Shown here: positions 13,832 to 35,462 of the stretch, in pieces
How positions within the stretch are numbered: the first letter of the stretch is position 1
Layout: every line of letters starts with the position of its first letter
DNA from: Candidatus Shapirobacteria bacterium
GTDB lineage: Bacteria; Patescibacteriota; Microgenomatia; UM-FILTER-40-11
DNA: 64,000 bases
Direction of reading: 5' to 3'
Assembly (NCBI GenBank): GCA_020059745.1
Contig: JAGVBK010000003.1
Location: 1,123 to 65,122 of the forward strand
Position numbers and translations under genes: made by a program
The notes under the pieces: generated by a model
Seen by the model: only the letters and a program-made list of their open reading frames with translations
What the model was told of the DNA's origin: nothing
The model's database searches: none

Positions 13832-13837
13832 AATATT

Positions 13838-13914
13838 TAAAAACCCTAAACCTCAAATCCTAAATCCTAATTTCTACTGCTTAGAGTTTTGTGTTTTGAA
13901 TTTAGAGTTTTAGG
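13838..13914. repeat. Heptamer-built inverted-repeat hairpin, empty copy A, in the uvrA leader
   Basis: aaaccctaaacctcaaatcctaaatcctaa, 10-nt loop, ttagagttttgtgttttgaatttagagttttagg. Confidence 0.8.
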
Positions 13915-14007
13915 TTGATTTGGGTTTCCTTTGGGACTTTTAATTATATCACTTTTAAGGCCGGTTTGGGTATTGTAAAAAGGGTTTTTTTATACTATCT
14001 TAAAACC

Positions 14008-14295: not shown

Positions 14296-14357
14296 TTTCT
14301 TGTCTTTTGCTCACTGCTTTGCTCGCTATTTGAGGCTAAAGGTGGTAAAATTCAGGC

Positions 14358-17987: not shown

Positions 17988-18048
17988 TAAATTTTATTAT
18001 AGCTCACTCTCTGGTGACAATTTGTCAAGAGCTTGAAATTTAGCTATT

Positions 18049-19443
18049 ATGAAAATAAGTATGGAAACCAAAGAACTGCCTAAAGCCCCTTCTTTTTGGA
18101 AAATAATCGGGCCTTCTTTTATCTTTCTTGGTTTATCTCTTGGTAGCGGCGAGCTTGTTTTGTGGCCGTATATGGCAGCCAATTATGGTTTGGGAATTTT
18201 ATGGGGGGCGCTTTTAGGAATTACTTTCCAGTTTATTATGAATATGGAAATTGAGCGATACGCTTTGGTGCGCGGGGAGAGTGTTTTTGTCGGTTTCTGG
18301 AAACTGGGGCGCTATTGGTCGCTTTGGTTTATTCTTTCCACTTTTATTGCCTGGGGATTACCCGGTTTTTCCGCTGCCGGCAGCCAGCTCTTAAACCAGC
18401 TTTTTGGTTTTGCCAACGAGACGCTGGTGGCGGTAATCTTGCTCTTGCTTACGGGTTTGATTTTAAGCATCGGCAAAACCCTATACCGGACCATGGAGGT
18501 TTTACAAAAATCAATTATTATTTTCGGGACGATTTTTATCTCGCTTTTGGTCTTTCTTTTAACAAAATTAACTGATTGGCAAGCAGCCGCTTTTGGTCTT
18601 ATCGGCCAGGGAGAGGGTTACCGCTTTCTTCCGGCGGGAATTTCTTTTATGAGTTTTTTGGGTGCCTTTGCTTACGCGGGAGCAGGCGGAAACCTCAACT
18701 TGGCCCAAAGCTATTATGTTAAAGAAAAAGGATACGGCATGGGAAAATACAGCCAAAAGATAAAAAGTCTTTTTGCCAAAGGCGGCAGCGATGTTAGCCT
18801 TAAGGGCACGACTTTTGAAAACAACAAAGCAAGCCGTTTTGAGTTTAAAAAATGGTGGAGGGTGATTAATTTAGAGCATTTTTTTGTTTTCTGGCTTTTG
18901 GGGTTTTTGACAATTACCCTACTTGCTGTTTTATCTTATTCACTTGTTCACGGAGAAGCAGGTGTTAAAGAGGGGATAAACTTTCTTTTTATGGAAAGCC
19001 AGATAATCGGCCAAAAAGTTACCCCTGTTTTTGGGTTTGTTTTTCTCCTTCTTGGCTTCATGATGCTTTATTCAACCCAAATCGGGGTACTCGAATCAAC
19101 TTCAAGGATAATTTCGGAAAATTTCTTTCTCCTTTCTCAGGGCAAAAGCAGCGAGCTTAAAGTGAACCTTTCCAAACTTTTTTATCTTGCTCTTTGGGGT
19201 CAGATAACTTTTGGCATCAGTGTTCTTCTTTTGGGCTTTAAAGAGCCAAGACTTCTTTTAACCTTAGCTGCAGTAATTAATGCTTTTTGCATGTTTGTTC
19301 ACCTTGGACTTACTTACTTTTTAAACAAGAAAATGCTTCCTTCAGAACTAAGACCGGCTCTTTGGAGAAAAGCAATATTGCTAATTGCTTTTATTTTCTT
19401 TGGTGTCTTCTCCTTTTTAACGCTCCGGCAAGGTTTGAGGTAA
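18049..19443 (+). CDS. Nramp/MntH-like (APC superfamily) transporter
   Basis: IIGPSFIFLGLSLGSGELVLWP...E..RY.L..GES; about 11 TM helices; possible start at 18061. Confidence 0.75.
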   Translation: MKISMETKELPKAPSFWKIIGPSFIFLGLSLGSGELVLWPYMAANYGLGILWGALLGITFQFIMNMEIERYALVRGESVFVGFWKLGRYWSLWFILSTFIAWGLPGFSAAGSQLLNQLFGFANETLVAVILLLLTGLILSIGKTLYRTMEVLQKSIIIFGTIFISLLVFLLTKLTDWQAAAFGLIGQGEGYRFLPAGISFMSFLGAFAYAGAGGNLNLAQSYYVKEKGYGMGKYSQKIKSLFAKGGSDVSLKGTTFENNKASRFEFKKWWRVINLEHFFVFWLLGFLTITLLAVLSYSLVHGEAGVKEGINFLFMESQIIGQKVTPVFGFVFLLLGFMMLYSTQIGVLESTSRIISENFFLLSQGKSSELKVNLSKLFYLALWGQITFGISVLLLGFKEPRLLLTLAAVINAFCMFVHLGLTYFLNKKMLPSELRPALWRKAILLIAFIFFGVFSFLTLRQGLR

Positions 19444-19479
19444 GCTGGTATAATATTTATAGCTAAAAGCTAATTTAGT

Positions 19480-19920
19480 ATGGCCAGGAAAAGCAGTAAT
19501 TTTGATAAATTCAAAAGCTCGGTTTTGACAATTGTTTCCGGTGTTGCTTTTGTCTTTATTCTTTGGATGCTTTTATACGGTAAAATCAAAGCTACCGGGC
19601 TTCTCTCTCCAATTATAGGCAGGTTGCCTAAAAACGAGGAAGCCTTGGTGGATACAACCGAAGATATTTTAGGGACTGCGGTGCAAAAGGCCAAAGACGG
19701 TGGAGTAAAGCGGACAGTGGAAAGAGGAAGCGAAGTTTTTGAAGAATCAAAATACGCTGAGCCTGCCAGAGACTTAAGAGACGATGTAAGGGAAAAAATT
19801 GACGGTGCGGTTGAATCAGCCAAAGAATTGCCTGCCAAAGAGCTGAAGCTTGTTCAGAAGGAAATTTGCACACAATGGTTTGGGGACGAAATATTTATTG
19901 CCACTGATAGCGGCGAATGA
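19480..19920 (+). CDS. Single-pass membrane hypothetical protein
   Basis: One TM helix, then a charged helical domain with EDILG. Confidence 0.7.
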   Translation: MARKSSNFDKFKSSVLTIVSGVAFVFILWMLLYGKIKATGLLSPIIGRLPKNEEALVDTTEDILGTAVQKAKDGGVKRTVERGSEVFEESKYAEPARDLRDDVREKIDGAVESAKELPAKELKLVQKEICTQWFGDEIFIATDSGE

Positions 19921-20024
19921 AACCCTAAGTTCTAAATCCAAATCCTAAATAATTTTCAAAACCCAAAATTTATATTTAAAAATTTGAATTTGCTTAGAGT
20001 TTAGAATTTAGTGTTTAGGATTTC
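19919..20024. repeat. Heptamer-built inverted-repeat hairpin, empty copy B, upstream of prfB
   Basis: gaaaccctaagttctaaatccaaatcctaaataattttcaaa pairs with tttgaatttgcttagagtttagaatttagtgtttaggatttc; followed by ccccaaagggg mini-hairpin. Confidence 0.85.
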
Positions 20025-20039
20025 CCCAAAGGGGATTTT

Positions 20040-21125
20040 ATGGAAGAAATTGTCCAAAAAATTGAGGAACTTAAAAAAAGGCTTGAGTTTTTGGTAGCCA
20101 AGCTTAATGTTGAAGACAAAAGGAAAGAAATAAAAAGCTTGGAGGCGGAAGCGGCCCGGCCCGGTTTTTGGGATGACCCCGGTCAGGCGCAGGCCAAAAC
20201 AAAACTTCTCTCCTTATATAATGAAGAGCTGTCAAAGGTTCAAGAATATGAAGAAAAAATTAATTCCCTTAAAGAGCTTGCTTCTTCAGAAGATGCTTCA
20301 GAACTTCAGGAGGACTTGAAAAAAGAAGTTGACAGCCTCGAAAAAGCAATGGAAAAGCTTGAGATAAGCACTTATCTTAGCGGCCCTTATGATCGTTCTT
20401 CTGCCATTGTTTCCATTCATGCGGGTCAGGGCGGAACAGAAGCGATGGATTGGGCCCAGATGCTTGAAAGAATGTATGTTCGCTTCGCAGAAAAAAGGAG
20501 TTGGAAAGTTGATGTTGTCGACGAAATTGCCGGAGACGAGGCGGGAATTAAAAGCGCAACGCTTTCCGTAGAAGGACCTTTTGCCTACGGATACCTTAAA
20601 GGCGAAAGAGGAGCGCATCGCCTGGTCAGACAATCTCCTTTTAATGCCGACAAGCTAAGGCAGACTTCTTTTGCTTTAGTGGAGGTTTTGCCGGAAATCG
20701 AGGAAGCGGAAAAAATTCCCATTCCTGATTCTGATATTGAATGGGATTTTTTTAGGGCTTCTTCTCACGGCGGCCAAAATGTTCAAAAAGTTTCCACGGC
20801 TGTAAGATTAAGGCACCTTCCCACCGGAATTGTGGTAACCAGCCAAAGTGAACGCTACCAGGAAAGAAACAGAGAAATTGCCCTAAACCTTTTAAGATCA
20901 AAGCTCTGGCAGCTTGAAGAGGAAAAGAAAGAAAGAGAGAGAAAAGACCTCAAAGGCGAGTTTAAGCTGGCAGCCTGGGGAAACCAGATTCGCTCTTATG
21001 TGCTTCATCCTTATAAAATGGTTAAGGATTTAAGAACTGAGTATGAAGTCAATGACCCTTTCTCTGTTTTAGACGGAAACCTGGACGGATTTATTGAGGC
21101 TGAACTTAAAACTCTTAAAGATTAA
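20040..21125 (+). CDS. prfB: Peptide chain release factor 2
   Basis: HAGQGGTEAMDW, HRLVRQSPF (SPF motif), GGQNV, WGNQIRSYVLHPY; continuous ORF. Confidence 0.97.
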   Translation: MEEIVQKIEELKKRLEFLVAKLNVEDKRKEIKSLEAEAARPGFWDDPGQAQAKTKLLSLYNEELSKVQEYEEKINSLKELASSEDASELQEDLKKEVDSLEKAMEKLEISTYLSGPYDRSSAIVSIHAGQGGTEAMDWAQMLERMYVRFAEKRSWKVDVVDEIAGDEAGIKSATLSVEGPFAYGYLKGERGAHRLVRQSPFNADKLRQTSFALVEVLPEIEEAEKIPIPDSDIEWDFFRASSHGGQNVQKVSTAVRLRHLPTGIVVTSQSERYQERNREIALNLLRSKLWQLEEEKKERERKDLKGEFKLAAWGNQIRSYVLHPYKMVKDLRTEYEVNDPFSVLDGNLDGFIEAELKTLKD

Positions 21126-21215
21126 TTTTATACTTGTCCTTTCATTCTTTTCTGTGCTATTCTTTATTCAGCCAGGAGGTCGCCTTTATTAATTTTGGCC
21201 GACAAAAGGAGAAAA

Positions 21216-21668
21216 ATGCCAGAAGAAATTCCTAACCTTAATTCTGACGAGGTTTCTAAAAAAAGACCCAACCCAAAAATTCTTACCCCCTTGCTTTTAG
21301 TAGTGGCTTTAGGTTTAGGGGCTTTTACTGGTTATTGGTTTGCGGGAAGAAATCCTACTTCAGGTTCGGAAGAAATAACCGGAGTTATTTCTGAGGACAA
21401 AATCGAGAAAGGTGCAGAATTCGGAGTTAAAGACACTGAAAATTTCCCCGATAAGGCAATTGGTGTTATTGAGGCAGGCGGAGAAAACGGAGAAGGAACC
21501 CATAAGCTTATAAGAGAAGGCGGGCCAAGCCAAACAGTATATTTAACCTCTTCTGTTTTAGACTTGGATCAGTTTGTCGGTAAAAAAGTTGAAGTAAACG
21601 GCGCCACTACCAAGGCGCAAAAAGTGGCCTGGCTTATGGATGTCGGCAAAATTAAGGTTCTTGAATAA
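21216..21668 (+). CDS. Single-pass membrane hypothetical protein
   Basis: TM helix, then GEGTHKLIREGGPSQTVYLTSSVLDLDQFVGKKV OB-like domain. Confidence 0.75.
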   Translation: MPEEIPNLNSDEVSKKRPNPKILTPLLLVVALGLGAFTGYWFAGRNPTSGSEEITGVISEDKIEKGAEFGVKDTENFPDKAIGVIEAGGENGEGTHKLIREGGPSQTVYLTSSVLDLDQFVGKKVEVNGATTKAQKVAWLMDVGKIKVLE

Positions 21669-21705
21669 ACGAAGAAAGTTATTCTTCGTGGCAGTTTAAA
21701 CTGCA

Positions 21706-22416
21706 ATGATTATTTTTGATAAAGTCAGCAAAAAATTTGGAAGCATTATTGCTTTAGAGGATGTTTCTTTCACTCTGGAAAAGGGTGAGTTTGTTTTTCT
21801 TACCGGTGCTTCCGGGGCCGGAAAAACCACTTTGATAAAACTTCTTTTAGGTGAGTACTTGCCTTCTGCCGGTGAAATTGAAATGAATGGCGAAAAAGTT
21901 TCCAAGGTTTCAAAGAAAAATCTTTATCTTTGGCGGAGAAAGCTTGGGGTTGTTTTTCAAGACTACAAGCTTTTTTGGGATAAAACAGTGGCTGAAAATG
22001 TTGCCTTGCCTTTGGAAATAATAAAAACGCCGGCAAAAGAAATTGGGGAAAAAGTGCAAAAAATACTTGAACTTGTAGGGCTGGAGGAAAGAAAAAGCCT
22101 CTTTCCCGCCCAACTTTCCGGCGGTGAACTGCAAAGGGTTTCTTTGGCCAGAGCGGTTATTACTGCTCCGGAGATTTTACTTGCAGATGAACCTACCGGC
22201 AACTTGGACCCCAAAACCTCAAAGGAAATGATAAGGCTCTTTAAAGAGATAAACGAAAAAGGAACAACCATCTTAATGGCTACCCATAACAATGAGATTG
22301 TTGATTCCTTTAAAGCTCGGGTAATTGAGCTTGAAAAAGGTAAGGTGGCAAGAGACGAAAAGGAAGGAAAATACTATAAAGATAAAAAGAAGGAAAAAGA
22401 GGAGGATGATGATTAA
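21706..22416 (+). CDS. ftsE: Cell division ABC ATPase FtsE
   Basis: GEFVFLTGASGAGKT, GVVFQDYKL, LSGGELQR, LLADEPTGNLDP; upstream of ftsX. Confidence 0.92.
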   Translation: MIIFDKVSKKFGSIIALEDVSFTLEKGEFVFLTGASGAGKTTLIKLLLGEYLPSAGEIEMNGEKVSKVSKKNLYLWRRKLGVVFQDYKLFWDKTVAENVALPLEIIKTPAKEIGEKVQKILELVGLEERKSLFPAQLSGGELQRVSLARAVITAPEILLADEPTGNLDPKTSKEMIRLFKEINEKGTTILMATHNNEIVDSFKARVIELEKGKVARDEKEGKYYKDKKKEKEEDDD

Positions 22417-23278
22417 AACCGCTAAGGATCATATAGTAAGATCGCCCTACCAGTCTTTAGCTGCAATTTTTGTCTTAACGCTTTCGCTTTTTCTCTTAAG
22501 CGCCTTTTTTCTTATCGGCTCTGGCTCACAGGTAATTTTGCGCCATTTTGAGTCAAGGCCTCAGGTCAGCGCCTACCTAAAAGACGAGGCAGCAACACAA
22601 GACATCGATCTTGTTAAGGCAAAAATTCAAGGCAACCCTAAGGTTAAAAAAATTGAATTCATTTCCAAGGAGCAGGCGCTTGAGCTTTACAAAGAACAAA
22701 ACAAGGATAAGCCTTTGCTTTTGGAAATGGTTTCCGCAAAAATTCTTCCCGCCAGTCTTGAGGTTTCCACCTATGATCTTTCTTCCCTTAAAAGCGTTGC
22801 TGAAACCTTAAAACAGGAAGAGATGGTTGAGGATGTTGTTTACCATGAAGATGTTGTTTCTTCTCTTTCAAACTGGATGGCCACTGTAAGAAAGTTTGGT
22901 TTGGGGGTGGCGGTTTTTCTTTTAACCATTGCCATAATGACAATTCTTATCATTTTAGGGATGAAGATATCCCAAAGAAAAGAAGAGATTGAAATCTTAA
23001 AGCTTTTGGGGGCTTCACCGCTTCATATTTGCGCCCCTTTCTACTTTGAAGGGGTGATATACGGGGTTTTGGCGGCTTTTATTTCTTGGGGGTTAAGCTA
23101 TGGGGCAATTTTATTGTCAAGTTCATTTTTAACACAATTTTTAGCGGGAATACCGCTTTTGCCAGTTTCCCCGATTTTTATGCTTGAAGTTCTCGGCGGA
23201 TTGCTCTTTTTAGGAATTTTTGTGGGGTTTGTGGGTAGTGTCTTGGCGGTTTCTCGCTTCAGCAGAACAATTAGATGA
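22406..23278 (+). CDS. ftsX: Cell division permease FtsX
   Basis: TM1, extracellular loop FISKEQAL..LPASLEV, RKEEIEILKLLGAS...PF..EG. Confidence 0.92.
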   Translation: MMIKTAKDHIVRSPYQSLAAIFVLTLSLFLLSAFFLIGSGSQVILRHFESRPQVSAYLKDEAATQDIDLVKAKIQGNPKVKKIEFISKEQALELYKEQNKDKPLLLEMVSAKILPASLEVSTYDLSSLKSVAETLKQEEMVEDVVYHEDVVSSLSNWMATVRKFGLGVAVFLLTIAIMTILIILGMKISQRKEEIEILKLLGASPLHICAPFYFEGVIYGVLAAFISWGLSYGAILLSSSFLTQFLAGIPLLPVSPIFMLEVLGGLLFLGIFVGFVGSVLAVSRFSRTIR

Positions 23279-24477
23279 AGCAGAAGATATTACTGATTCT
23301 TTTTTTTATTTTTCTCCAGATTTTTAGTTTCAGGATTGGAGTTTTTGCGGCCGAATGTACGACTCCAAGAGAGGGAGCTACCAGAGAGGAGCTTGAGGAT
23401 ATTATTCGTGCCTGTGAAGCCCAGATAGGCGAAACCAAAAAACAAGTAGACAGCCTTTCCAGAGAAATTGGCATTATTGACGGCCAAATCAGGGTAGCCC
23501 AGCTTAAAATTTCCCAAACAGAATACCAAATAAGAACGCTTGAGGAAGAAATAGTTAATCTTTCCGGAAAAATTGAGAGACTTGACGGTTCGCTTGACTA
23601 TCTTTCCAGAGTTCTTTTAGACCGGGTGGCCGAATCTTACAAAAGAAACAAAGTTGATGCCATAACCATCCTTTTTTCTTCAAGGAATGTTTCTGATTTT
23701 GTTGCCCGCTACCGGTATTTGCAAAAAATCCAGCTTCATGACCGGGAACTTCTTTTGTCAATGGAACAAACAAGGACCAGCTATGACGAGCAAAAAAGCC
23801 TGAAAGAGCAAAAGCAGGAAGAGCTGGAAAAGCTGCAAGCCCAGCTTTTGACGCAAAAAAAGCAGCTTGATATTCAAGTGGCAAACAGGAAAAGAATCCT
23901 TGAGGAAACCAGAGGAAAGGAAGCAGTTTACCAGCAATTTCTTGCTAGCGCCAAAGGAGAACTAGAGGCCATCCTGGGAATTTTGGAGGGCAAGGGAAGA
24001 GAAGAAAGAATAAAAGATGTTTCCGAAGGCGAAAAAATTGCCTCAGTTATTTACGGAGCCTCATGTAATTCAAATGGTACACACCTTCATTTTATGATCA
24101 CTAAAGACGGCAAGCCCTTAAACCCTTTTAGCTATCTTAAGGGAGGTATTAATTATGAAAACTGTTCCGGTTCTTCCTGCGGCAGCGCGGACGCTGATCC
24201 TTTTAATCCGCAAGGTGATTGGGGCTGGCCTTTAAATGAAAAAATCAGGCTCACTCAAGGTTACGGTTATACCTGGGCAATTCAACACATTCCCTGGTTA
24301 AGGGCAATTTATACTTTTCATAATGGTATTGATTTGCAGGGAGGAAGCTTAGATGTTAGAGCAACAAAAAAAGGTGCTCTTTATTGGGGAAGTTATGTGG
24401 GAAGGTGCACTTTAAAGTATGTTAAAGTGGAGCATGAAGACGGCTTCAGTTCCTACTATCTTCATGTAAACTACTGA
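23275..24477 (+). CDS. Coiled-coil murein hydrolase/activator (EnvC/CwlO-like) with permuted M23 domain
   Basis: Signal peptide, long coiled coil, GTHLHF...NPFSYL then WPL..TQGYG..HNGIDL..VEH..YYLH. Confidence 0.8.
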   Translation: MKQKILLILFFIFLQIFSFRIGVFAAECTTPREGATREELEDIIRACEAQIGETKKQVDSLSREIGIIDGQIRVAQLKISQTEYQIRTLEEEIVNLSGKIERLDGSLDYLSRVLLDRVAESYKRNKVDAITILFSSRNVSDFVARYRYLQKIQLHDRELLLSMEQTRTSYDEQKSLKEQKQEELEKLQAQLLTQKKQLDIQVANRKRILEETRGKEAVYQQFLASAKGELEAILGILEGKGREERIKDVSEGEKIASVIYGASCNSNGTHLHFMITKDGKPLNPFSYLKGGINYENCSGSSCGSADADPFNPQGDWGWPLNEKIRLTQGYGYTWAIQHIPWLRAIYTFHNGIDLQGGSLDVRATKKGALYWGSYVGRCTLKYVKVEHEDGFSSYYLHVNY

Positions 24478-25338
24478 TGAGCAGATTTTTAAATAAACTA
24501 CCTTTTTTAGTTTTTTTTCAACTCCTGTTCCTCTTTTCTTTAGCAAAAACTTCCTATGCTCAGGTAGTGATTAATGAATTTGTTTTTGATCCGACAAATG
24601 ACCAAAACGAGTGGGTGGAATTATATAATATGGGTACAGAGACAGTTAATCTTCAAGGTTGGCAAATTTCCGATAAGCTTAGTTCTCCCCATGTTCACTC
24701 TCTTGATAGTCTCGGCTCCATTCCTTCTGATGGGTTTGTAGTTTTTGAATACCAATCTGGAGACGGTTGGCTTAATAATGATGCCGATACGGTTATTCTT
24801 AGGGATAAACGAGGGTAATATCTTGGATGAAAAAGAGTATTCCTCAAATCCGGGAGAAGGAAAATCTTACGGTAGAAGCCCAAATGGTACAGGAGGTTTT
24901 ATTGTTTATGATGCTGCTTCGGTTTCAAAAGGTGTGGTAAACCCTACTCCTACAGAAGTTCCTACCCCCACCCCAACTCCCCAGCCAACGGAGGTTCCGA
25001 CTGAAGCACCAGAGCCAACAGCAACCCCAACCCCTGAGCCGACTTTAACCCCTACTCCCACGACAAAGCCGACAACTAAGCCTTCACCGACTCCAACACC
25101 AGATAAAGAACCGGAAATGGTAACTACCAGCTTCGACGGACCTCAGGGCGAAGTTTTGGGTAGCGAGTCCTCTCCAACAGGACCAGACGAACTCGAAGAC
25201 ATAAAAGCTCTTTATTCCCCTCCGGAAAAGAAAAAATCAATTCTTCTTCCGATTTTTTTAATCGGTGGCGGCGGAGTATCTATTTTCTTTTCAGTTCTTT
25301 CTTTTCTTAAAAAGGAAGAAGGTGAGGAAGTTGCTTAA
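24477..25338 (+). pseudogene. Lamin-tail-domain (LTD) surface protein with PT-rich stalk and C-terminal TM, split by a 1-nt frameshift
   Basis: [25 protein letters not shown] in one frame continues as [21 protein letters not shown] in another; extra A in gatAAAc at 24807-24809. Confidence 0.75.
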
Positions 25339-25382
25339 TTTCTTGTCTTTTAAACTAATAAATAATATAGTTAATTTTACCA

Positions 25383-25799
25383 ATGGTTAAAGTTCTTAAA
25401 GATATTTTATATATCTTGCCTCCGCTTTTATGGATGGCTTTAATTTATTACCTTTCTTCGTTTAACAGGCTTCAGGCTTCCGAAATAGGCTGGCAGGATT
25501 TTGTTCTAAGAAAAGGGGCTCATTTTGCCGAATATGCAATTCTTTTTGTTTTAATTTACCGGGCCTTTAATTTTATGACCAGGCTTTCTTTAGCTGACAA
25601 GCTTTTTTTTACCTTTTTCCTAACAGTTTTGTATGCCCTGACAGACGAATATCACCAAACCTGGGTTTTGGGGAGAACCGGAAAGCTTTTTGATGTTATG
25701 GTGGACACTTCGGGGGCAGTTTTTGGCTTTGTTTTTTCTGCTAAATTAATTTACCGCTTGCCAATAAGTATGCAAAGATTTATTCTAAAAAAGTCATGA
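25383..25799 (+). CDS. VanZ family protein
   Basis: RKGAHFAEYAIL, YALTDEYHQTWV.GR....DV..D..G. Confidence 0.88.
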   Translation: MVKVLKDILYILPPLLWMALIYYLSSFNRLQASEIGWQDFVLRKGAHFAEYAILFVLIYRAFNFMTRLSLADKLFFTFFLTVLYALTDEYHQTWVLGRTGKLFDVMVDTSGAVFGFVFSAKLIYRLPISMQRFILKKS

Positions 25800-26779
25800 A
25801 AGTTTTAGTTACCGGTGGCGCCGGGTACATAGGTTCACATACGGTTGCCGAGCTGCAAAAGCAAAACATTGAAGTAGTGGTTTTTGACAATTTGATTTGC
25901 GGCCATAAAGAAGCGGTTACGTGTCCTCTAATTGTCGGCGATCTTCTTAAAAAAGATGAGATTAAAAAAGTTTTTAAGGAGAATAAGTTTGACGGGGTAA
26001 TCCATTTTGCCGCTTATGCCCTGGCCGGAGAATCGATGAAAGAGCCGGCAAAATATTTTGAAAACAATCTCCAGGGCGGGCTTAATCTTCTTGAAGCTAT
26101 GAGAGAGGGTGAAGTTAATAAAATTGTTTTTTCTTCCACTTGTGCAATTTACGGCTATCCGGATAAACTGCCGGTTATTGAAGAGGAAAGCAAAAAGCCG
26201 GTCTCTGTTTATGGGGAATCTAAGCTTATGTTTGAAACCATTCTTCGCTGGTATGACCAGCTTTTCGGAATAAAAAATGTTTGTCTTAGATACTTTAACG
26301 CCAGCGGCGATTCTTTGGACGGCTCAATTGGTGAAGACCACAAACCGGAAACTCATATTATTCCTATTGCCATGCAAGCTGCCTTAGGCCAAAGGGAAAA
26401 ATTCTCAATTTTCGGGGAAGACTACAATACTCCTGACGGCACCTGTATTCGCGACTACATTCATGTTTTGGATTTGGCCTCTGCCCACATAAAAGCGCTT
26501 GATTATTTATCTAAAGAAGGAGAAAGCAATTATTTTAATGTCGGTACCGGCCAGGGCTATTCAAACAAAGAAATTCTCAACATGGTTAAAGAGGTAACAG
26601 GGGTTGATTTTCCGGTTGAAGTTGGGCCGAGAAGAGAGGGAGACCCGGATGCAATTTTTGCGGACAGTTCAAAGGCAAAAACGGTTTTAGGCTGGGAGCC
26701 AAAGCACTCTGATCTTAAGACAATTATTGAGTCAGCCTGGAAATGGCACAAAAGCCACCCCAAGGGCTATTCTTCCTAA
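25796..26779 (+). CDS. galE: UDP-glucose 4-epimerase
   Basis: VTGGAGYIGSH, FSSTCAIYG, YGESK, LRYFNASG, TPDGTCIRDYIHV. Confidence 0.95.
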   Translation: MKVLVTGGAGYIGSHTVAELQKQNIEVVVFDNLICGHKEAVTCPLIVGDLLKKDEIKKVFKENKFDGVIHFAAYALAGESMKEPAKYFENNLQGGLNLLEAMREGEVNKIVFSSTCAIYGYPDKLPVIEEESKKPVSVYGESKLMFETILRWYDQLFGIKNVCLRYFNASGDSLDGSIGEDHKPETHIIPIAMQAALGQREKFSIFGEDYNTPDGTCIRDYIHVLDLASAHIKALDYLSKEGESNYFNVGTGQGYSNKEILNMVKEVTGVDFPVEVGPRREGDPDAIFADSSKAKTVLGWEPKHSDLKTIIESAWKWHKSHPKGYSS

Positions 26780-26870
26780 GCAAGCGCTTTCTTCTTACCA
26801 AGTTATTACTTCTTTTTAAGAAGCTTCATAAACCGTTAAGGTTTAATGAATTTTGAAGCTAAAAACACTC

Positions 26871-26916
26871 TTGACAAGAAAATTTTTTTTGGTATTTTTT
26901 AAATTAAAGGAGGTGA
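26871..26916 (+). promoter_or_regulatory. Promoter (-35 TTGACA) and strong SD for hsp20
   Basis: TTGACA 26871-26876, TGG-TATTTT about 16 nt later, AAGGAGGTGA before ATG 26922. Confidence 0.5.
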
Positions 26917-26921
26917 TATAG

Positions 26922-27344
26922 ATGGCGATAGTAAGATGGGAACCATCAGGTTTAACCAGAAGAATTTTAGATTGGCCTTTTTTATTCAGTGATGAGGAAA
27001 TGCCAATGGCAATAAGGCAGGGCCTTGACATTTATGAAACAGAAAACGAGGTAGTTGTTAAAGCTCCTGTTCCCGGAGTTTTGGAGGACGAGGTTGATGT
27101 GACTTTTGAAAACGGAGTTTTAAGAATTCAGGCCAGGCACGAAGAAACCGACAAGGAAAAGGAAGAAAAAAGAACTGTTTACCAGCAGCAAAGAATTGTA
27201 TCTTTTGACTACACAACTACTCTGCCGCGTTCGGTTGATCCAGACAAAATTTCAGCTGAAGTGGAGAACGGCGTTGTCGTTGTTAAGGCGCCAATTGCCG
27301 AAGAAGCAAAGCCGAGAAAAATTGCCATTAAAGGAAGAAGATAA
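26922..27344 (+). CDS. Hsp20/alpha-crystallin small heat-shock protein
   Basis: LDIYETENEVVVKAPVPGV..V.V..ENGVL.I, LP..VD..KISAE.ENGV, C-terminal KIAI motif. Confidence 0.93.
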   Translation: MAIVRWEPSGLTRRILDWPFLFSDEEMPMAIRQGLDIYETENEVVVKAPVPGVLEDEVDVTFENGVLRIQARHEETDKEKEEKRTVYQQQRIVSFDYTTTLPRSVDPDKISAEVENGVVVVKAPIAEEAKPRKIAIKGRR

Positions 27345-27364
27345 ACTACCTTTTTTTCTGTGAT

Positions 27365-27392
27365 AAGCAGGAAGGATTTCCTTCCTGCTTTT
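27365..27392. terminator. Terminator between convergent hsp20 and the small membrane-protein gene
   Basis: aagcaggaagg-attt-ccttcctgctt followed by tt. Confidence 0.8.
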
Positions 27393-27537
27393 AAAATGCC
27401 AAAATGCCTAGACCGATAAGACCGATAAGAATAAGATAAATCCCTACTAAAGTTGAAAGCAGTCTGGGATTAAACAGAATTAGAACTCCGAAAACAAGGG
27501 ATAAAATCGGGCTTAAATTCACTAAGGTTAATCTCAT
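27391..27537 (-). CDS. 48-aa two-helix membrane protein, DUF3096-like (not in ORF track)
   Basis: Manual translation MRLTLVNLSPILSLVFGVLILFNPRLLSTLVGIYLILIGLIGLGILAF*; SD-like GAAAGGGGG upstream. Confidence 0.8.
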   Translation of the reverse strand: MRLTLVNLSPILSLVFGVLILFNPRLLSTLVGIYLILIGLIGLGILAF

Positions 27538-27692
27538 TTAGCCCCCTTTCTTTTAGAGAAATTATGAATGGCTGCCAAACGAGAGTCAAGCAATCTTCTT
27601 TCTTGACAGCAGTTAGTAAAAAATTATATATCATAAAATATAGCAATTAATTTCTTCTGCCCAATCATTACTTACGAAAGGAGGTGAAAGAA

Positions 27693-28040
27693 ATGACTTC
27701 AACTGAAAGACGTATCCCTGACGATGGAGTTGCAGAAACACTAAGCCCCATTGCTAGAATGAAAGATTTGAAAGAAAGATTAGGAACAGCGGTTAAAAGC
27801 CCGGAATGGGAAATTGCTGACGATGAAGGAAGAAAGGAAATAATGGAAGGAGTGCTTGGTCAATCTTTGGAGTACTATACCGAAAACGGATACCGAGATA
27901 AAACTGAAGAACTAACCAGGATTCTTGGCCAGTTTAAGGAAGGAGCTATTGGAGTTGAGGTAATTGTTGATACTGCCATGCCGCAAGAAAATAATGGTGT
28001 CAAAAAGAAGGGTTTTTTGACTCTTTTTAGACGCCGTTAA
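27693..28040 (+). CDS. Hypothetical protein
   Basis: SD AAAGGAGGTGA before ATG; TTGACA at 27603; ends KKKGFLTLFRRR; hairpin at 28054-28089 downstream. Confidence 0.7.
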   Translation: MTSTERRIPDDGVAETLSPIARMKDLKERLGTAVKSPEWEIADDEGRKEIMEGVLGQSLEYYTENGYRDKTEELTRILGQFKEGAIGVEVIVDTAMPQENNGVKKKGFLTLFRRR

Positions 28041-28105
28041 ACTGGCTTTGTTAATATTATAGAGGGCTTTGGCAAGCTCTCTGTAATATGGAGTAAAATG
28101 GATTT

Positions 28106-28732
28106 ATGATCCATCTTCCTGCAAAAAAAATTGTTAATGTCTTTTCTTTGTTAATTATTTTTTTAGGAATTGGAATTTTGCTTCTTACTTTTGGCAGCCC
28201 TCTTTTTTATGAAGTTCAATATCAGGCAAAAACCATTGCCAAGCCTGGAGCGCAAGAACAAAAGAATAAAGAGATAGTTCCTGTGAATGCAGACTTTTCA
28301 ATTGTAATTCCTAAAATTAACGCTAATGCTCCGATTTTTCCCAACGTTAACCCTTTTGAAGAAAAAGAATTTTCTCCAGTTTTAAAAAAGGGAGTTGCCC
28401 ATGCCAAAGGAACTTCTTTTCCCGGCAACAACAAAAACATTTATCTTTTTGCCCATTCAACTGATGTTTTTTTTAATGTCGGCCGATATAATGCCGTTTT
28501 TTATCTTATTGGAAAACTTGAAAACGGAGATGAAATCGACATTTATTATAGGGAGGGACTTTTTAAATATAAGGTGTTTGAGAAAAAGATTGTTTCTCCG
28601 GAAGCAGTAAATTATCTGGAAATCGGAGATGAAGAAATACTTACTCTTCAGACTTGTTATCCTCCGGGAACAACTCTCAAAAGGCTGGTAGTAAGAGCCA
28701 GTCCCTCGGAAGCACTAAATTCAAAATACTAA
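28106..28732 (+). CDS. Sortase
   Basis: N-terminal TM; IVIPKI, GVAH, FAHS, F..IGKLE.GDEI, LTLQTCYPPG..KRLVV (His-Cys-Arg triad). Confidence 0.93.
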   Translation: MIHLPAKKIVNVFSLLIIFLGIGILLLTFGSPLFYEVQYQAKTIAKPGAQEQKNKEIVPVNADFSIVIPKINANAPIFPNVNPFEEKEFSPVLKKGVAHAKGTSFPGNNKNIYLFAHSTDVFFNVGRYNAVFYLIGKLENGDEIDIYYREGLFKYKVFEKKIVSPEAVNYLEIGDEEILTLQTCYPPGTTLKRLVVRASPSEALNSKY

Positions 28733-28743
28733 GCTCTAAATAA
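28709..28743. repeat. Left arm of hairpin element copy C, overlapping the sortase 3' end
   Basis: aagcactaaattcaaaatactaagctctaaataa is about 28/34 identical to the reverse complement of 29128-29161. Confidence 0.85.
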
Positions 28744-28749
28744 ACACAA

Positions 28750-29106
28750 ATGGCCCAAACTCAAAAAACAAAATTTGATTTAGATGAAAGAACATTTAAG
28801 TTTGCGAAGGAAGTTGTTAATTTTGTTAAAGGTTTGCCTCATAATATTTCTAATATTGAAATTGTAAAACAATTAGTCAGGTCTTCCGGATCGGTTGGGG
28901 CAAATTACATTGAAGCAAGCGAATCTTTAAGCAGGAAAGATTTTCTAATGAGGATCAAAATTTGTAGGAAAGAAGCCAAAGAAAGCGTTTATTGGTTAAG
29001 GTTATTGACTTGTTTGGCTGAACAAGAAACAGAAAGAGAGGCTTTGATAATAGAGGGAATCGAGTTAACGAAAATTTTCGGCTCAATTGTCGAGAAATCA
29101 AAATAA
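28750..29106 (+). CDS. Four helix bundle protein (23S rRNA IVS protein/TIGR02436-like)
   Basis: DLDERTFKFA, QLVRSSGSVGANYIEA.ESLSRKDF..RIKICRKEAKES.YWLRLL, E..EL.KIF.SI. Confidence 0.92.
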   Translation: MAQTQKTKFDLDERTFKFAKEVVNFVKGLPHNISNIEIVKQLVRSSGSVGANYIEASESLSRKDFLMRIKICRKEAKESVYWLRLLTCLAEQETEREALIIEGIELTKIFGSIVEKSK

Positions 29107-29161
29107 TTTGAACTTTTGGTTTTGAAATTATTTAGAGTTTAGGATTTAGGGTTTAGTGTTT
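29107..29161. repeat. Right arm of hairpin element copy C
   Basis: tttgaaattatttagagtttaggatttagggtttagtgttt; closely matches the right arm of copy B (19983-20023). Confidence 0.85.
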
Positions 29162-29174
29162 AATAAAATAGTTC

Positions 29175-29203
29175 TTGACAAGTCCTATAATCTCCTCTAT
29201 ATT
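29175..29203 (+). promoter_or_regulatory. Sigma70 promoter of the giant surface protein
   Basis: TTGACA 29175-29180, 17 nt spacer, TATATT 29198-29203. Confidence 0.7.
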
Positions 29204-29234
29204 AAGGTAAGCGCTTGCCTGTGCTTTTTATTAC

Positions 29235-32200
29235 ATGAATAAAATTAAGTTTCTTCAAAAAATATTTTCCCTAATCACTTCTTTTAGCTTGCTTATTCAG
29301 TCATCTTTTGGATTTTTAACAACCTACAATTTTGCTTATGCCCAGGAAGAACCAACCCCGACTCCTGAAGTTACGGTTACGGTTGTTCCTCCCCAAGAAG
29401 AACCTACCCCAGAACCAACAATAGTAGTGACAGAAATACCTTTGCCAGAACCAACAGAAACGCCAACTGTAACAACAAATGTAACAGAGCCGGAAACCAC
29501 TCCAACACCTACCCCAGCAGAAACACTTCAGCCTGATTTAAACGAGCCTGAAATAAACGAGCCAAGTGCAGCTCTTAACCCTTCTATTTCAACAGATAAA
29601 GATGATTACCCCCCTACAGGAACAGTAGTTCTTACCGGAAAAGATTTTCCGGCAAACACGGAATTAAGAATTAAGGTAACTTGGCCGGATGGGCAGGTAA
29701 GAAGCGCTTCAGGCGAAATAGGCCAGACAGATACAGCAAAAACAGACGATCAAGGGAACCTTACTTTCTTTTATCCCCTAAGAGGAGAAGGACAGGAAGG
29801 GGAATACCTAGTTGAAATTATTAATGGTGAAACAGTTTTAGCAATTACAAATTTTACAGATCAACATCCCGAGCAGTCTTCGCCAATTGTACTTAATGAA
29901 ATTTTACCTGATCCAATGGGGAATGTTGGAGCGCAAGAGGCAGATGAATTTATTGAAATATACAACAAAGGAACTGAGGTAATCGATCTTTCGGGTTTTA
30001 CCCTGACCGATACCCAGGGCGCAAATCCGTCTCCATTTTCGCTTTCCGGCACGATAGGGGCTGGAGGTTTTATTTCTTATCCTAAAACTGTTTCCCAAAT
30101 AACTCTTAATAACGACGGGGATACTGTGCAGCTTCTTTATAATAGTGTGGTAGTTGATTCGTATAGTTATACTTCTTCGTCAATTACTGAAGGCCGCAGT
30201 TACGGACGGTGTGGTGACGGAGAGGATAATTGGGTTGAGTTGGCGAACCTAACTCCAGGAAGCGCTAATGACTGCTCTTCGCTAGACGATAATCAGACTT
30301 TATCTCAAGAGGTTTGTCCTGAAGGTGAGGGCGGTTGGGTAAAGGTGGATGGTCTAAGTAGTTTATATTATTTTTACACGGCCCCAACAGGCAAACTTGT
30401 ATCTAATACTTGCTACAAAGCAGGAAATACTGTTGTTTATGGGGAAATTACTCCTCCTGCTTCTCCAGTTACAGTTTCCTCAACTGTTTTTAACCAAGAT
30501 GGTTGCACGGAAATTGGTTCGGGATGTAATTATCAGAATTTGTCTCATGCATCTTTTAAGCTTGTTGACGAACCTCTCCCTGATCCGTATTTTAATCTGG
30601 CTGTATGCTATGAAGGTTCTCTTGGTACCCAAGCAACAGAAGCAAGATTTGGGTATTTGGCAAGAGATCTTTCTCTTGAATCAGTAGTGGAAAGAAATAC
30701 ATTGACTAACGGGGGTTCCCTGCCGCAAGGAATTCCTTTAGGTCAGAATTCTGAAAGAGTATGGTCTACAAACACTTACGTATTGAATTCAAACAATTAT
30801 GTTTGGACAGTAAAAATTAACGGAAAACAAAAAACTGCAACAATTGATAAGTTGGGAGGTAAAAATAGTATTGTTACTGAGCAAAACCAATGTCCATTAC
30901 CTGAACCGGTTTGCGGTAATGGAATCTTGGAAGGAGACGAAGAATGTGATGATGGAAATACACTAGATGGTGATAATTGCAATTCCAATTGCCAGTGGGA
31001 ATTAATATGTGATCCTGAAAAAGAACTTGCCATTAACGGTGGGTTTGAAACACCGGTTGTTGGTTCTCAAAAATGGGATATTTTTGAATCAGGAACTTCA
31101 GGCCTTAGTTGGACGGTAAACTGGCGCGAAAGTTTTGGTAACTACAGAGGTTGGGAACTTCCTGATCCAGCTCATCTTGAGCTACATAGGAGTGTTAATG
31201 GATGGTTGCCAAGAGAAGGATCACAGCATGCGGAACTTGATTCAGATTGGAATGATCACTCAGGGAATCTTAATAACGAACCAGCCTCAACGGTCATTTA
31301 TCAAGATATTCCTACAATTCCAGGCAATCAATACACAATTAAGTTTTACTTTTCCCCAAGGCCAAATACACCTCAGACAGACAATGTTCTTGAGTTTAGT
31401 TGGGGGGGAGAAGTTAAGGAAACTATTTCCAGGGCAGGGGGTAGTAATACAGACTGGTCAGAGCATACTTATACTTTTACAGCAACAACAACACCAACAA
31501 GACTTCAATTTAAAGATTTGGGAACGGCAAATTCTTTAGGTACGCTGATTGATGGAGTAAGTGTTCGCTGTCTTGGTCCGGAAAAAGGTTCATTAACAAT
31601 TTGTAAATATAATGATTTAAACAAAGACGCACAAATAACTGAAGGTGAGCCAAAAATTTGGTGGGAAATGACAGTTGTTGATATGGATGGAGCAGATGCA
31701 GGGGAAACCTGGAATAAAGCTACTCCGGCAAATGACTGTTTAACACTTGAAGGGATGGATTTTGGGGAATACGAAGTAACTGAAACTGAAACGTCGGGGT
31801 GGACTCGATCTTATCCTACGGATAGTAATTCTCAAACAGCAGTCTTAAACGTAAGCAATTCGGATGTGATCGTGAATTTTCTAAACTATGAAACACCTCC
31901 GGTTTGTGGAGACGGAGTGATTAATCAAGATTCTGAAGAATGTGACGGAGATGATTTGGGAGATGCTGATTCGGAGAGTAATTTTTGCACCACTGAATGT
32001 AAACTAGTCCCTGTTTATTATGGCGGTAATTCTTGCCCTCCTGAGTATCCGGTTCCAAAGCTTCTTGGGACATACACTGTTTCCAGTACGGATGCTGATG
32101 GGATTTTGGTTCCGGTAACCACGGGAGGAAGATATCTCTTTGAGGCTCTAGGGACTTATCGCCCGACCCAAAGAGATGCTGTGCCGGCAATGTGGTTTGC

Positions 32201-35200
32201 CGATGCCGGTTATTCAACTGATAATAATTGGGACTCATTAAAAACTCAATATGGGATTGGGGGGAGTGGTATTGACAAGGGAGCACATGCGCTTTTGGGA
32301 AACTTGGGTAGCGGAGTGGGGATTGTCGAATGGGGGGATTACAACCAAGATCACGAATATCGTTTTTATCATGAACCAACTCTTTCTTCTTTGCAATTTG
32401 TTATTGGTGACCGTTGGGACTCTTGGTATGGGACAAAATGGGATAACCAGGAGGGAATGTATGATAACAGCGGAGAACTGACTTTAAAATTATATGAGTG
32501 CCTTCCTCAAAAACCTCAATATCTTTGTGACGATACAATTTATACTGCCAATAATCAGAGCAGCTTAACCTGGCTTGACAGCAGCAATGGCAGCACCCAT
32601 GAACTTACTACTATGAATTTTGGTTCTTCGGCCAGTGCAGACGACCCCTTTATGCATATAACTTATTATGTAAATAGATATGGAAACAGTGATGAGTTAG
32701 CTTACTACGACCATGATAGTGATACTCATACTACGGTTGGCAATTTGAATGTTTCATCATTCTTCACAAAACTTGCTTTTGACATTTATGGGAGGTTATA
32801 CGGTCTTACCGATGAACACTCTTTATACCTAATAGATAAAGAAAACGCCTCGGTTGAGAAAAAGGGAGTTATAAGCGGAATTAACAGTGGCGGCGACATA
32901 ATTTTTGATGAAAATAACGATTTATATCTCATTGGAACAAACGGATGGCTCTACACTATTGATCTTTCGACTCTAGTTGCTAGCTTAGTTAAAAAAACAG
33001 GACTAAGCAGCGTAACAGGGATTGCTTACAGGCAGGGGGTCTTTTATGTATCCACTGTAAATAGCGGAAAGTCCAATATTTACACTATGGATAAGTTAGG
33101 TAACGCTTCGGGCCCTCTCAATCAGGAACCGGTTGACCCCATTAATGACCTTAGCTCATGTCTTCCGGGAACCCCGCCTATTTGCGGCGATGGGGTGGTC
33201 AATCAAGCTTCAGAGCAATGTGACGGCGTAGAGGGGACAGCGGGTGATGGCAGTAATTTCTGTACTGATACTTGTAAGTTGATTCCGGTTTATTCAGGAG
33301 ACAATACTTGTCCTGATGGAAAAGTAAAGGCTGCTTCTCCTGTTTTTTCCCAATTTGTGAATGTTAGTCCCACAGCAAGTGAATACATGGTTGTTAATGG
33401 TTTAACAGAAGGAGAAGATTATCTTGTTGAAGTTTCAGGAAAGTATCAATTTGATCCTGGTGTTGCGACCAAATGGGCAGACGCAGCTTATGCCTCTTAT
33501 GCGGCGGATGGAGCAGGTTCACTTCCATGGAACTTCAGAACTGATTTAGGAATTCATCCAACAACAGGTAAAGACGCGGTGGGCAATTATAAAAGCAGGG
33601 GAATTACTTCTTTACTTTCCGACTTGGGAACTGGAGTTATGGGAGTGGTTGATTGGGGAGATTTCGATGAAGGTCATAATTATTCGTTCCTTTATAAGGC
33701 ACTTGCAAGTTCTCCAAAGTTTATTGTTTCTGAATGGTATGGGGATTGGTATAAAACAAGCCAGAGTAATTTTAATACCTTTAATAATCTTGGCAGTTTG
33801 AATCTTGAAGTTTATGAATGTGTGGAGCCGGGCATAATTAAAGGAACTAAGTATCTTGACGAAAACGCTAATGGTATTCATGATTATAATCTTTCTTTAT
33901 CCGATGTTTACGAAAGTCAGCTCCTGAATGGGTGGAAAATTAGGCTTTATGATTCTGGCTGGAACAAGATTGACGAAACTGAAACGGCGAATTTAGGAAA
34001 TAAAGGCCAGTATATATTTAACAATGTCGTCCCCGGAACCTATTATGTTTGCGAGGTAATGGAGAATGGTTGGGAACAAACAGGACCGAACGAGGGAGAT
34101 GGAAGTATAAACAATAATTGGCAGCAGACTGGCAATGGATTGGCGGTAGAGAATGAATCTCCTAATAAAGAGGAAGAAGGTTCAGTTTGTTGGAAAGCTG
34201 ATGTTGAGCCGGGCGAAGAAGATAAATGGCTTAAGTTTGGCAATACGCAATATGGTTCAATTTTGGGGGTTAAATGGGAAGATGTTAATGGAGATGGAGA
34301 CCGAGACGAAGGTGAGGATGGGCTTTCCGGTTGGACAATTCAATTAAAACAAGGAGAAAATACTATTGAAACCACTACTGGCGAAGGCGGAGTCTATTCT
34401 TTTGAGAATGTAATTTCCGGAGAATATGAAGTTTGTGAAGTCATGAAAGATGGTTGGGAAAACACTGCTGGCGGGGTTTGCCGGGAAATAACTTTATCTG
34501 CTGGCGAAGATAAGTCTGGCGTTGATTTTGGGAACTTTGAGCTCGGAAGAATTTTTGGTTACAAGTACAACGATATTAATGATGACAGCAACTTAGATGT
34601 TGGCGAGACCGGGGTTAACGGCTGGCAGATTTGCATTGAGAAACAGGAGGATCAGTTTTCACTACCTGATTTAGCAGCTGAGGTTGCTTCAGAAAATGAT
34701 GAAGGAAATTGTGTTTATACTGATGAAACTGGTTATTACGAATTTACGGGATTAACTGCCGGTATATATACTATTATTGAAGAAGACAGAAGCAGCGAAG
34801 GCTGGAGAGCAAGCAACCCTGAATCGGGAAAATATGAAGGAATTGAAATTCTCTCAGGAACAGGCTACGGTGAAGAAAGCAATTATGACTTTTATAATGC
34901 TCCTCCGCCCAGCATTCTTTTAAATAAAAGCAATAACAATTCTTCAGCCGGAGTTGGAGATACCGTAGGTTACATTTTAACCATTACAGTTGGCGAAAGA
35001 ACTCTTTCAGATATGACTTTGGTTGATAATCTTCCTGAAGGTTTTACCTATCAGGCTGGATCTTCCAAAATTAACGGGAATTCGGTTGAGCCGGCAATTT
35101 CCAATGAGGATAAAACATTAACCTGGACTTGGGGAGAAGTTTTAGCAGGGTCTGTGATAGTTGTAACTTATGATATTAAGATTGAGCCTTCAAACCAGCC

Positions 35201-35462
35201 TGCAGCTTATACAAACTATGCTCAGGTATCCGGGCACGGGTCTCCTACGGTAGTAACCAGCGATATTGTTCAATCAGAAGTTTGGATTGGCAATGTTTAT
35301 GCCTATAATGGCACGGTCGGAGGCCAGGTTTTAGGAACAAGCACAGGCCAGGTTTTAGGCGCTTCCACTTTGCCTGCAGCCGGTTCTGAGACTTGGTATT
35401 TACTGGCAGCCTTTAGCTTAATCGGAACAGGCCTTTTTATTAGAAAAAAGTATTTACATTAA
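29235..35462 (+). CDS. 2075-aa multidomain cell-surface adhesin, putative sortase substrate
   Basis: Signal peptide, PT/E stalk, LTD, CGNG/CGDG..ECD disulfide repeats, DUF642-like (INGGFETP), duplicated lectin-like module, propeller-like repeats, SdrD-B-like repeats (KW.D.NGDG.RD.GE.GL.GW.I), DUF11-like, LPAAG + TM + RKK. Confidence 0.9.
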   Translation: MNKIKFLQKIFSLITSFSLLIQSSFGFLTTYNFAYAQEEPTPTPEVTVTVVPPQEEPTPEPTIVVTEIPLPEPTETPTVTTNVTEPETTPTPTPAETLQPDLNEPEINEPSAALNPSISTDKDDYPPTGTVVLTGKDFPANTELRIKVTWPDGQVRSASGEIGQTDTAKTDDQGNLTFFYPLRGEGQEGEYLVEIINGETVLAITNFTDQHPEQSSPIVLNEILPDPMGNVGAQEADEFIEIYNKGTEVIDLSGFTLTDTQGANPSPFSLSGTIGAGGFISYPKTVSQITLNNDGDTVQLLYNSVVVDSYSYTSSSITEGRSYGRCGDGEDNWVELANLTPGSANDCSSLDDNQTLSQEVCPEGEGGWVKVDGLSSLYYFYTAPTGKLVSNTCYKAGNTVVYGEITPPASPVTVSSTVFNQDGCTEIGSGCNYQNLSHASFKLVDEPLPDPYFNLAVCYEGSLGTQATEARFGYLARDLSLESVVERNTLTNGGSLPQGIPLGQNSERVWSTNTYVLNSNNYVWTVKINGKQKTATIDKLGGKNSIVTEQNQCPLPEPVCGNGILEGDEECDDGNTLDGDNCNSNCQWELICDPEKELAINGGFETPVVGSQKWDIFESGTSGLSWTVNWRESFGNYRGWELPDPAHLELHRSVNGWLPREGSQHAELDSDWNDHSGNLNNEPASTVIYQDIPTIPGNQYTIKFYFSPRPNTPQTDNVLEFSWGGEVKETISRAGGSNTDWSEHTYTFTATTTPTRLQFKDLGTANSLGTLIDGVSVRCLGPEKGSLTICKYNDLNKDAQITEGEPKIWWEMTVVDMDGADAGETWNKATPANDCLTLEGMDFGEYEVTETETSGWTRSYPTDSNSQTAVLNVSNSDVIVNFLNYETPPVCGDGVINQDSEECDGDDLGDADSESNFCTTECKLVPVYYGGNSCPPEYPVPKLLGTYTVSSTDADGILVPVTTGGRYLFEALGTYRPTQRDAVPAMWFADAGYSTDNNWDSLKTQYGIGGSGIDKGAHALLGNLGSGVGIVEWGDYNQDHEYRFYHEPTLSSLQFVIGDRWDSWYGTKWDNQEGMYDNSGELTLKLYECLPQKPQYLCDDTIYTANNQSSLTWLDSSNGSTHELTTMNFGSSASADDPFMHITYYVNRYGNSDELAYYDHDSDTHTTVGNLNVSSFFTKLAFDIYGRLYGLTDEHSLYLIDKENASVEKKGVISGINSGGDIIFDENNDLYLIGTNGWLYTIDLSTLVASLVKKTGLSSVTGIAYRQGVFYVSTVNSGKSNIYTMDKLGNASGPLNQEPVDPINDLSSCLPGTPPICGDGVVNQASEQCDGVEGTAGDGSNFCTDTCKLIPVYSGDNTCPDGKVKAASPVFSQFVNVSPTASEYMVVNGLTEGEDYLVEVSGKYQFDPGVATKWADAAYASYAADGAGSLPWNFRTDLGIHPTTGKDAVGNYKSRGITSLLSDLGTGVMGVVDWGDFDEGHNYSFLYKALASSPKFIVSEWYGDWYKTSQSNFNTFNNLGSLNLEVYECVEPGIIKGTKYLDENANGIHDYNLSLSDVYESQLLNGWKIRLYDSGWNKIDETETANLGNKGQYIFNNVVPGTYYVCEVMENGWEQTGPNEGDGSINNNWQQTGNGLAVENESPNKEEEGSVCWKADVEPGEEDKWLKFGNTQYGSILGVKWEDVNGDGDRDEGEDGLSGWTIQLKQGENTIETTTGEGGVYSFENVISGEYEVCEVMKDGWENTAGGVCREITLSAGEDKSGVDFGNFELGRIFGYKYNDINDDSNLDVGETGVNGWQICIEKQEDQFSLPDLAAEVASENDEGNCVYTDETGYYEFTGLTAGIYTIIEEDRSSEGWRASNPESGKYEGIEILSGTGYGEESNYDFYNAPPPSILLNKSNNNSSAGVGDTVGYILTITVGERTLSDMTLVDNLPEGFTYQAGSSKINGNSVEPAISNEDKTLTWTWGEVLAGSVIVVTYDIKIEPSNQPAAYTNYAQVSGHGSPTVVTSDIVQSEVWIGNVYAYNGTVGGQVLGTSTGQVLGASTLPAAGSETWYLLAAFSLIGTGLFIRKKYLH

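Follow-up and report, generated by a model that had tools for sequence, protein, structure and literature searches.

The cassette described here lies between a sortase gene and a surface-protein gene, and not inside an rRNA gene, in a 64,000-nucleotide stretch of DNA, here called the window. The host, a Candidatus Shapirobacteria bacterium, is represented by an 857-kb genome in 5 contigs that is 96.6% complete. The sortase gene upstream of the cassette (28106..28732, + strand) is present without the cassette in relatives. The cassette is sequentially composed of a left outer arm (28710..28739, +), a left inner arm (28740..28765, +), a gene for a 118-residue four-helix-bundle protein (28750..29106, +), a right inner arm (29107..29131, −) and a right outer arm (29132..29161, −). 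Each outer arm carries five AA doublets in a 7-nt register, and the repeating unit of the left one is A-N-N-C-X-A-A, where X is mostly T. In a column profile, the left inner arm comprises the junction and a shifted heptamer array that extends across the start codon to the codons that follow it; the right inner arm is likewise a shifted heptamer array.

The arm at 28710-28743 aligns ungapped with the reverse complement of 29128-29161, and 28 of the 34 positions are identical. This bears out a sequence-only reading in which inverted heptamer arms bracket the 118-residue ORF, with the outer left edge refined to 28710. The left outer arm overlaps the final sortase codons and the stop codon, and the sequence confirms that it encodes the sortase C-terminus, EALNSKY, as that reading had noted. 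This overlap looks incidental, judging from the tails of the orthologues, which vary freely, and from the roughly 10 of 88 upstream genes that stop within an arm. The predicted fold of the 461-nt cassette pairs the two arms with a z of −4.0, a value equalled by none of 100 shuffles. An Rfam search over window positions 13000-31000 returned no match near a gathering score and none over the cassette. Outside the cassette, a promoter-like site (29175..29203, +; 11 of 12 consensus positions) precedes the surface-protein gene at 29235, and a TTGAC element is also found 3′ of the sortase in relatives. The surface protein, encoded 3′ of the sortase at 29235-35462, has 2075 residues with lamin-tail, SdrD B-like, SpaA and DUF11 domains and is likely the substrate of the sortase.

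The 118-residue ORF matches TIGR02436 with 73.7 bits (cut-off 24) and PF05635 with 54.2 bits (cut-off 33.8). Its predicted structure (pLDDT 92.8) consists of four helices spanning residues 11-26, 33-57, 62-85 and 90-117. A structure search with this model retrieved 2RLD (E 7e-6) and 2GSC (E 6e-4), and more weakly Avd (4DWL and 8UB7; TM about 0.67, E 0.02-0.05). Both 2RLD and 2GSC contain five chains. By analogy with these homologs, and from the citation given in PMC4990558, the cassette protein likely forms a homopentamer. The helix topology of the model would put the tail of helix 4 and the conserved DLEERT and KDF motifs at one end of the protein.

The window contains two further copies of the arm pair, neither of which encloses a gene. 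One (13841-13910) is located in the uvrA leader between a TATAAT element and the start codon, and is absent from two same-family relatives with a similar leader. The other (19920-20023) precedes prfB and begins at the stop codon of the preceding ORF; five same-family relatives that share this gene order lack it. These are the gene-less pairs that had been placed at 13838-13914 and 19919-20024, and they are real, with slightly different edges. All six arms in the window have five AA doublets at 7-base spacing. The gene-less copies fold with z values from −1.8 to −4.4 depending on the strand.

Across the genome, a profile scan identified 29 arms of the same heptamer family at 15 bits or more, compared with 0-2 in 5 shuffles. 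They comprise the gene cassette, five clear two-arm empty copies and single arms, several of which are within genes. A scan blind to heptamer family found 66 period-7 arrays, against 4-6 in 3 shuffles. Nor is the arrangement peculiar to one gene: inverted heptamer arms enclose all five four-helix-bundle genes of the genome and one remnant (local alignment scores 16-25), contrary to the possibility, raised at the outset, that other such genes lack them. The arms of these loci use different heptamers, and other heptamer families in the genome run to about 8 units. The cargo enclosed by arms consists solely of four-helix-bundle ORFs, except for one overlapping ORF taken as spurious. The remnant (G000:C5:201840-202086) is internally shortened and contains a stop codon, and it keeps both arms; it is a possible step from a full to an empty copy. 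The sequence-only reading saw no transposase in the window, and a search of the 96.6% complete genome that covered the Y1 family (PF01797) as its one transposase family, together with reverse transcriptase (PF00078), found neither. A GxxExxY protein was not found in the genome, and a gene for RNase III is present.

The best 80 of 550 genome matches to the protein, 57-71% identical to it, come from many phyla and one archaeon, and the protein tree mixes host phyla. An inverted-repeat score of at least 14 was obtained for 67 of the 77 close homologs with flanks and for 0 of 202 controls. Both arms exceed 15 bits at 59 of the 77, compared with 0 of 138 control regions. The expectation of the same arms around four-helix-bundle genes elsewhere held for most close homologs. 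Genome homologs, metagenome loci and loci from relatives together provide 115 two-arm elements with a median length of 472. No target-site duplication was detected in these 115 elements (2-8 nt, five offsets; no excess over permutation). Their surroundings are mostly unrelated loci: the 96 upstream genes fall into 78 families, and the 90 downstream genes into 78 as well. The neighbours are co-oriented with the cassette at 88 of 100 upstream and 78 of 96 downstream positions.

In 60 relatives, the count of a four-unit pattern tracks the count of genes (rho 0.76, against 0.57 for a reversed control pattern, with kin that are not independent). The 34 relatives with two or more genes have a median of 27.5 matches. 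The 15 in which no gene was found have a median of 1, yet three of them hold 18, 10 and 7. Viral contigs yielded 60 pattern matches, none of them a relative.

The arms share the unit A-N-N-C-X-A-A. At five in-register places, both arms retain the AA doublet with 96-100% conservation, which ends just outside the first doublet and gives the arm a sharp outer edge. Exactly five in-register doublets are present in 93 of 115 left arms and 93 of 115 right arms, a count that is partly built in by an arm profile that presets five units, whereas the absence of a sixth is not preset. A sixth doublet occurs on the outward side in 15 left and 19 right arms, and on the inward side in 2 and 3. The base X is identical in the two arms of 56 of 57 loci (2 of 59 were left out for short ORFs).

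The main alternative to a mobile unit is an RNA-level intervening sequence, in which the stem in the transcript would be cut by RNase III or bound by the pentamer, thereby controlling translation of the gene itself or decay of the host mRNA. The fold of the stem (z −4.0), the RNase III gene and the co-orientation of cassettes with host operons fit this reading as well. It also has a precedent in the S23p-bearing 23S rRNA element of Coxiella burnetii, which in the available part of its description has tandem heptamers before the start codon and a 28-bp stem and is excised by RNase III (PMC4990558). In Avd, all five protomers take part in binding an RNA stem-loop. The pairing between the arms argues against it. 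Watson-Crick pairs account for only 321 of 649 spacer cells, and wobble pairs (84) are no more frequent than A·C appositions (94); among close homologs, G·U and A·C appositions number 141 and 146. In the T class (P 0.45, n 40) and the G class (P 0.21, n 10), the two arms of a cassette resemble each other no more closely than they resemble arms from other cassettes, though the C class displays an excess (P 0.002, n 8). Thus covariation, which had been named as a point on which the reading could fall, is absent from the T and G classes beyond X and present to some extent in the small C class. In addition, single arms persist without partners, and one of the two gene-less copies shows no folding advantage of the sense over the antisense strand.

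Because the arms show neither base-pair compensation nor a G·U bias, a sense-strand RNA hairpin is not an evident target of selection. Both arms retain a single motif, on opposite strands and without compensation, so the two DNA strands look equivalent. This pattern resembles a series of binding sites more than an RNA stem under selection. Alternatively, the protein may read a bulged duplex, which would also require X to match between arms. We consider the RNA-level explanation unlikely. Of the two possibilities first offered, an mRNA intervening sequence or a small mobile unit, the second gains support and the RNA stem as the selected feature loses it.

Relatives provide evidence that the units were inserted. 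Orthologous sortase loci had been proposed as a place to look for an empty site, and none of the 29 best sortase loci from the 60 relatives has a match to the cassette protein in the flank examined. A match to the downstream surface protein is found at 6 of the 29 and a similar long ORF at two more; at these eight loci the stop codon is followed by a short armless spacer. Because they are only 44-66% identical, the eight are not exact pre-insertion alleles. They do establish that the gene is not fixed at this locus in all relatives. The prfB site lacks an arm in all 19 relatives compared, five of which are same-family genomes that share the upstream gene. At the uvrA site, 17 of 18 relatives score below 15 bits, and two same-family leaders are similar and empty. 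A further case is the YchF gene (G000:C5:79392-79454, L284), which has a 26-residue in-frame insertion made mostly of two arms in direct orientation. The segment measures 65 residues here, 39 in 10 relatives (among them all 5 of the same family) and 46-47 in 5, and was unparsed in 5. Together, the copies, the empty sites and the YchF insertion support an inserted unit of small size that exists both with and without the gene. Movement at the sortase locus need not be recent: the joints listed from 8 of 22 sequencing runs include no strain-level empty site that skips the cassette between host flanks, and near-identical contigs keep the cassette junctions. The arm-to-arm joints in those runs likely derive from empty copies in other organisms.

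Heptamer arrays also occur at some of these sites in relatives. In the uvrA leader, same-family relatives L334 and L336 carry arrays of another type at the corresponding site, reflecting either a repeated target or turnover in place, and the uvrA leaders of two other relatives contain an arm-like seed. The sortase homologs of L025, L026 and L030 are followed directly after the stop codon by gene-less heptamer hairpins.

The distribution of sites also bears on a second alternative, a domesticated repeat-binding regulator of the host for which scattered arms would serve as operators in leaders such as those of uvrA and prfB. Empty copies in leaders and at gene junctions would suit such a role, and MacGregor proposed one for TAACTGA repeats, according to the available part of PMC4679880. 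We regard this as improbable: the sites are not common to same-family relatives, no gene was found in 15 of 60 relatives, arms also lie within coding loops, and the protein tree mixes host phyla.

A likely link between the protein and its arms comes from base X. The protein columns most closely tied to X are 111 and 115, followed by 107 and 108, all in helix 4. The cassette protein of the window has G111 and E115, as do T-type cassettes. A two-residue rule was fixed before the hold-out loci were collected. The hold-out comprised 109 loci, of which 13 were dropped for a broken ORF or a short flank and 73 metagenome and 23 relative loci were kept. Among the 73, 57 were non-duplicate with a clear X, and 12 had a mixed X or none. 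In these 57, G111 accompanies X = T or G in 48 of 48 cases and S111 accompanies X = C or A in 8 of 8; one T-type cassette has D111. R or H at position 115 accompanies X = G in 10 of 10 cases and occurs in 0 of the 42 others, while 5 of 15 G-type cassettes lack it. Ten of the 23 relative loci were usable, with 9 and 10 of 10 fitting the rule. Over 122 rows, including the 56 training rows, the rule is right for 117, compared with 92 when X is taken from the nearest neighbour over residues 9-100. Where nearest neighbours are discordant, 27 of 30 differ as the rule predicts.

The association of X with residues 111 and 115 is firm. We infer from the sequences that these residues may determine the choice of X, and the earlier suggestion that the protein is tied to its arms likely finds its link here. 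GC content was considered as a cause of X and set aside, as the class medians (0.46 for T, 0.56 for G and 0.44 for C) have overlapping ranges; it may contribute to G without explaining it. On a tree built without the helix-4 tail, G requires 15 changes and C 5, with only 6 branches well supported, and a single C-type clade is weakly rejected (p-AU 0.042). Well-supported branches contain 1 independent pair, which gives no power. With so poorly resolved a tree and one independent pair, shared descent is a possible cause of the match. That the arms are passive repeats, arising and turning over by slippage at tolerant sites and linked to the gene through block inheritance without recognition, is the least probable explanation: other-type arrays at the uvrA leader of two relatives and an arm-like seed at that of two more, arrays in genomes without a found gene and the weak tree favour it, but the fixed unit number, the sharp outer edge, the degenerate units that are not slipped copies, the same arm across phyla and the closer tracking of X by the helix-4 tail than by the protein body do not.

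We assign a probability of about one half to a selfish cassette, whose protein would bind the arms, most likely as single-stranded DNA, and help them to spread, while host enzymes would carry out the joining. In the proposed mechanism, a pentamer would bind one arm with one subunit per heptamer unit and read X through the tail of helix 4. Five subunits and five units suggest this stoichiometry on a single strand. TRAP and Hfq bind single strands with one subunit per unit, at other periods. On geometric grounds, a 7-base period would be easier to reconcile with a strand that winds round a ring than with a rigid duplex. The first-choice ligand would be single-stranded DNA exposed in replication or transcription. 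The weakest step is insertion, which would be carried out by host enzymes without target duplication, with copies surviving at gene junctions, in leaders and in surface loops.

Several known systems resemble the cassette in part. In REP/REPIN systems, the gene of RAYT, a Y1 tyrosine transposase, lies between inverted repeats made of short palindromes, and many doublets have no gene. The cassette likewise has a gene flanked by inverted repeats and many gene-less doublets. Unlike RAYT, its passenger is not a Y1 transposase, none was found in the genome, and its arms are tandem heptamers; an identity with REPIN-RAYT was rejected since no Y1 tyrosine transposase lies between the inverted repeats. 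Like a MITE or an insertion sequence, the cassette has sharp-ended terminal inverted repeats and full and empty copies. A MITE was rejected because the 115 elements show no target-site duplication.

Dispersed heptamer repeats are known from bacteria, the cyanobacterial STRR among them. The TAACTGA repeats (PMC4679880) and the GGGAATC repeats of Xanthomonas (PMC4692102), as far as the available parts of those papers describe them, share with the arms the 7-base unit and the intergenic location, often immediately 5′ of a start codon, at the end of a gene or in frame; the Xanthomonas repeats also form inverted pairs. The genome studied here holds arrays of TCAGTTA, the reverse of TAACTGA, as well as a four-helix-bundle gene flanked by the TCAGTTA type. 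In those parts of both papers, the repeats are described without the tie to four-helix-bundle genes that the cassette has. Genes close to repeats are tabulated in the supplements of PMC4679880, which could be informative about such a link.

S23p rRNA intervening sequences (PMC4990558, available part) encode a member of the same protein family and have an ORF looped out by terminal inverted repeats, with tandem heptamers before the start codon. Unlike them, the cassette is found not in rRNA but in ordinary operons, at numerous unrelated loci, has gene-less and single-arm copies, and has an interrupted stem that is not compensated. An ORF-bearing rRNA intervening sequence proper was rejected because the cassette is not inside an rRNA gene, though its terminal inverted repeats can form a stem. 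What was known already, within these sources, is the heptamers, stem and RNase III excision of the S23p element (PMC4990558) and dispersed heptamers without a gene link (PMC4679880, PMC4692102).

Avd of diversity-generating retroelements has a similar fold, with 13-14% identity, and is a pentamer that contacts an RNA stem-loop with all five protomers, according to the part available (10.1101/2023.10.23.563531). In that complex, the RNA is at the narrow end of Avd and the C-terminus at the wide end, so Avd does not predict a binding site at the helix-4 tail. A diversity-generating retroelement was rejected, as the genome lacks a detectable reverse transcriptase (PF00078) and the neighbours are a sortase and a surface protein. 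The cassette works like a non-autonomous/autonomous mobile pair, but differs from MITEs, REPINs, diversity-generating retroelements and rRNA intervening sequences in their defining features. No general description of it was found in the literature searched, which mostly excludes subscription journals.

A more general proposal is tentative. Cassettes of this kind could be widespread minimal selfish elements without a catalytic gene, in which a pentamer reads five-unit arms by a residue-to-base code in helix 4. Subfamilies with their own heptamers would then be the source of dispersed prokaryotic 7-base repeats, ORF-bearing rRNA intervening sequences would be copies landed in rRNA, and DGR Avd would be a co-opted relative. 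The large orphan protein family gains a specific candidate ligand. If true, the proposal would link the function of S23p, the origin of dispersed bacterial heptamer repeats and the spread of ORF-bearing intervening sequences. It would also add a new kind of nucleic-acid reader, a ring-shaped protein that recognises repeat arrays by a residue-to-base code.

Other features of the genome are recorded here. A small coiled-coil ORF with a short internal direct repeat (window 13990-14295) is divergent from uvrA, its family matches all being sub-threshold. A paralog of about 110 residues (G000:C5:197048-197380) lacks, by eye, the middle of the IEA..E..S motif, and a GC-rich palindrome lies between its stop codon and right arm. 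Single arms are found in frame on the coding strand inside genes at G000:C5:188402-188432, C5:184674-184704, C1:159083-159113 and C5:179072-179102; three of the genes presumably encode an arginyl-tRNA synthetase, an aminopeptidase and a glycosyltransferase, which they resemble, and the fourth a 2778-residue protein. Arms also adjoin putative tRNAs at G000:C5:205-235, C5:7968-7998 and C4:475-563.
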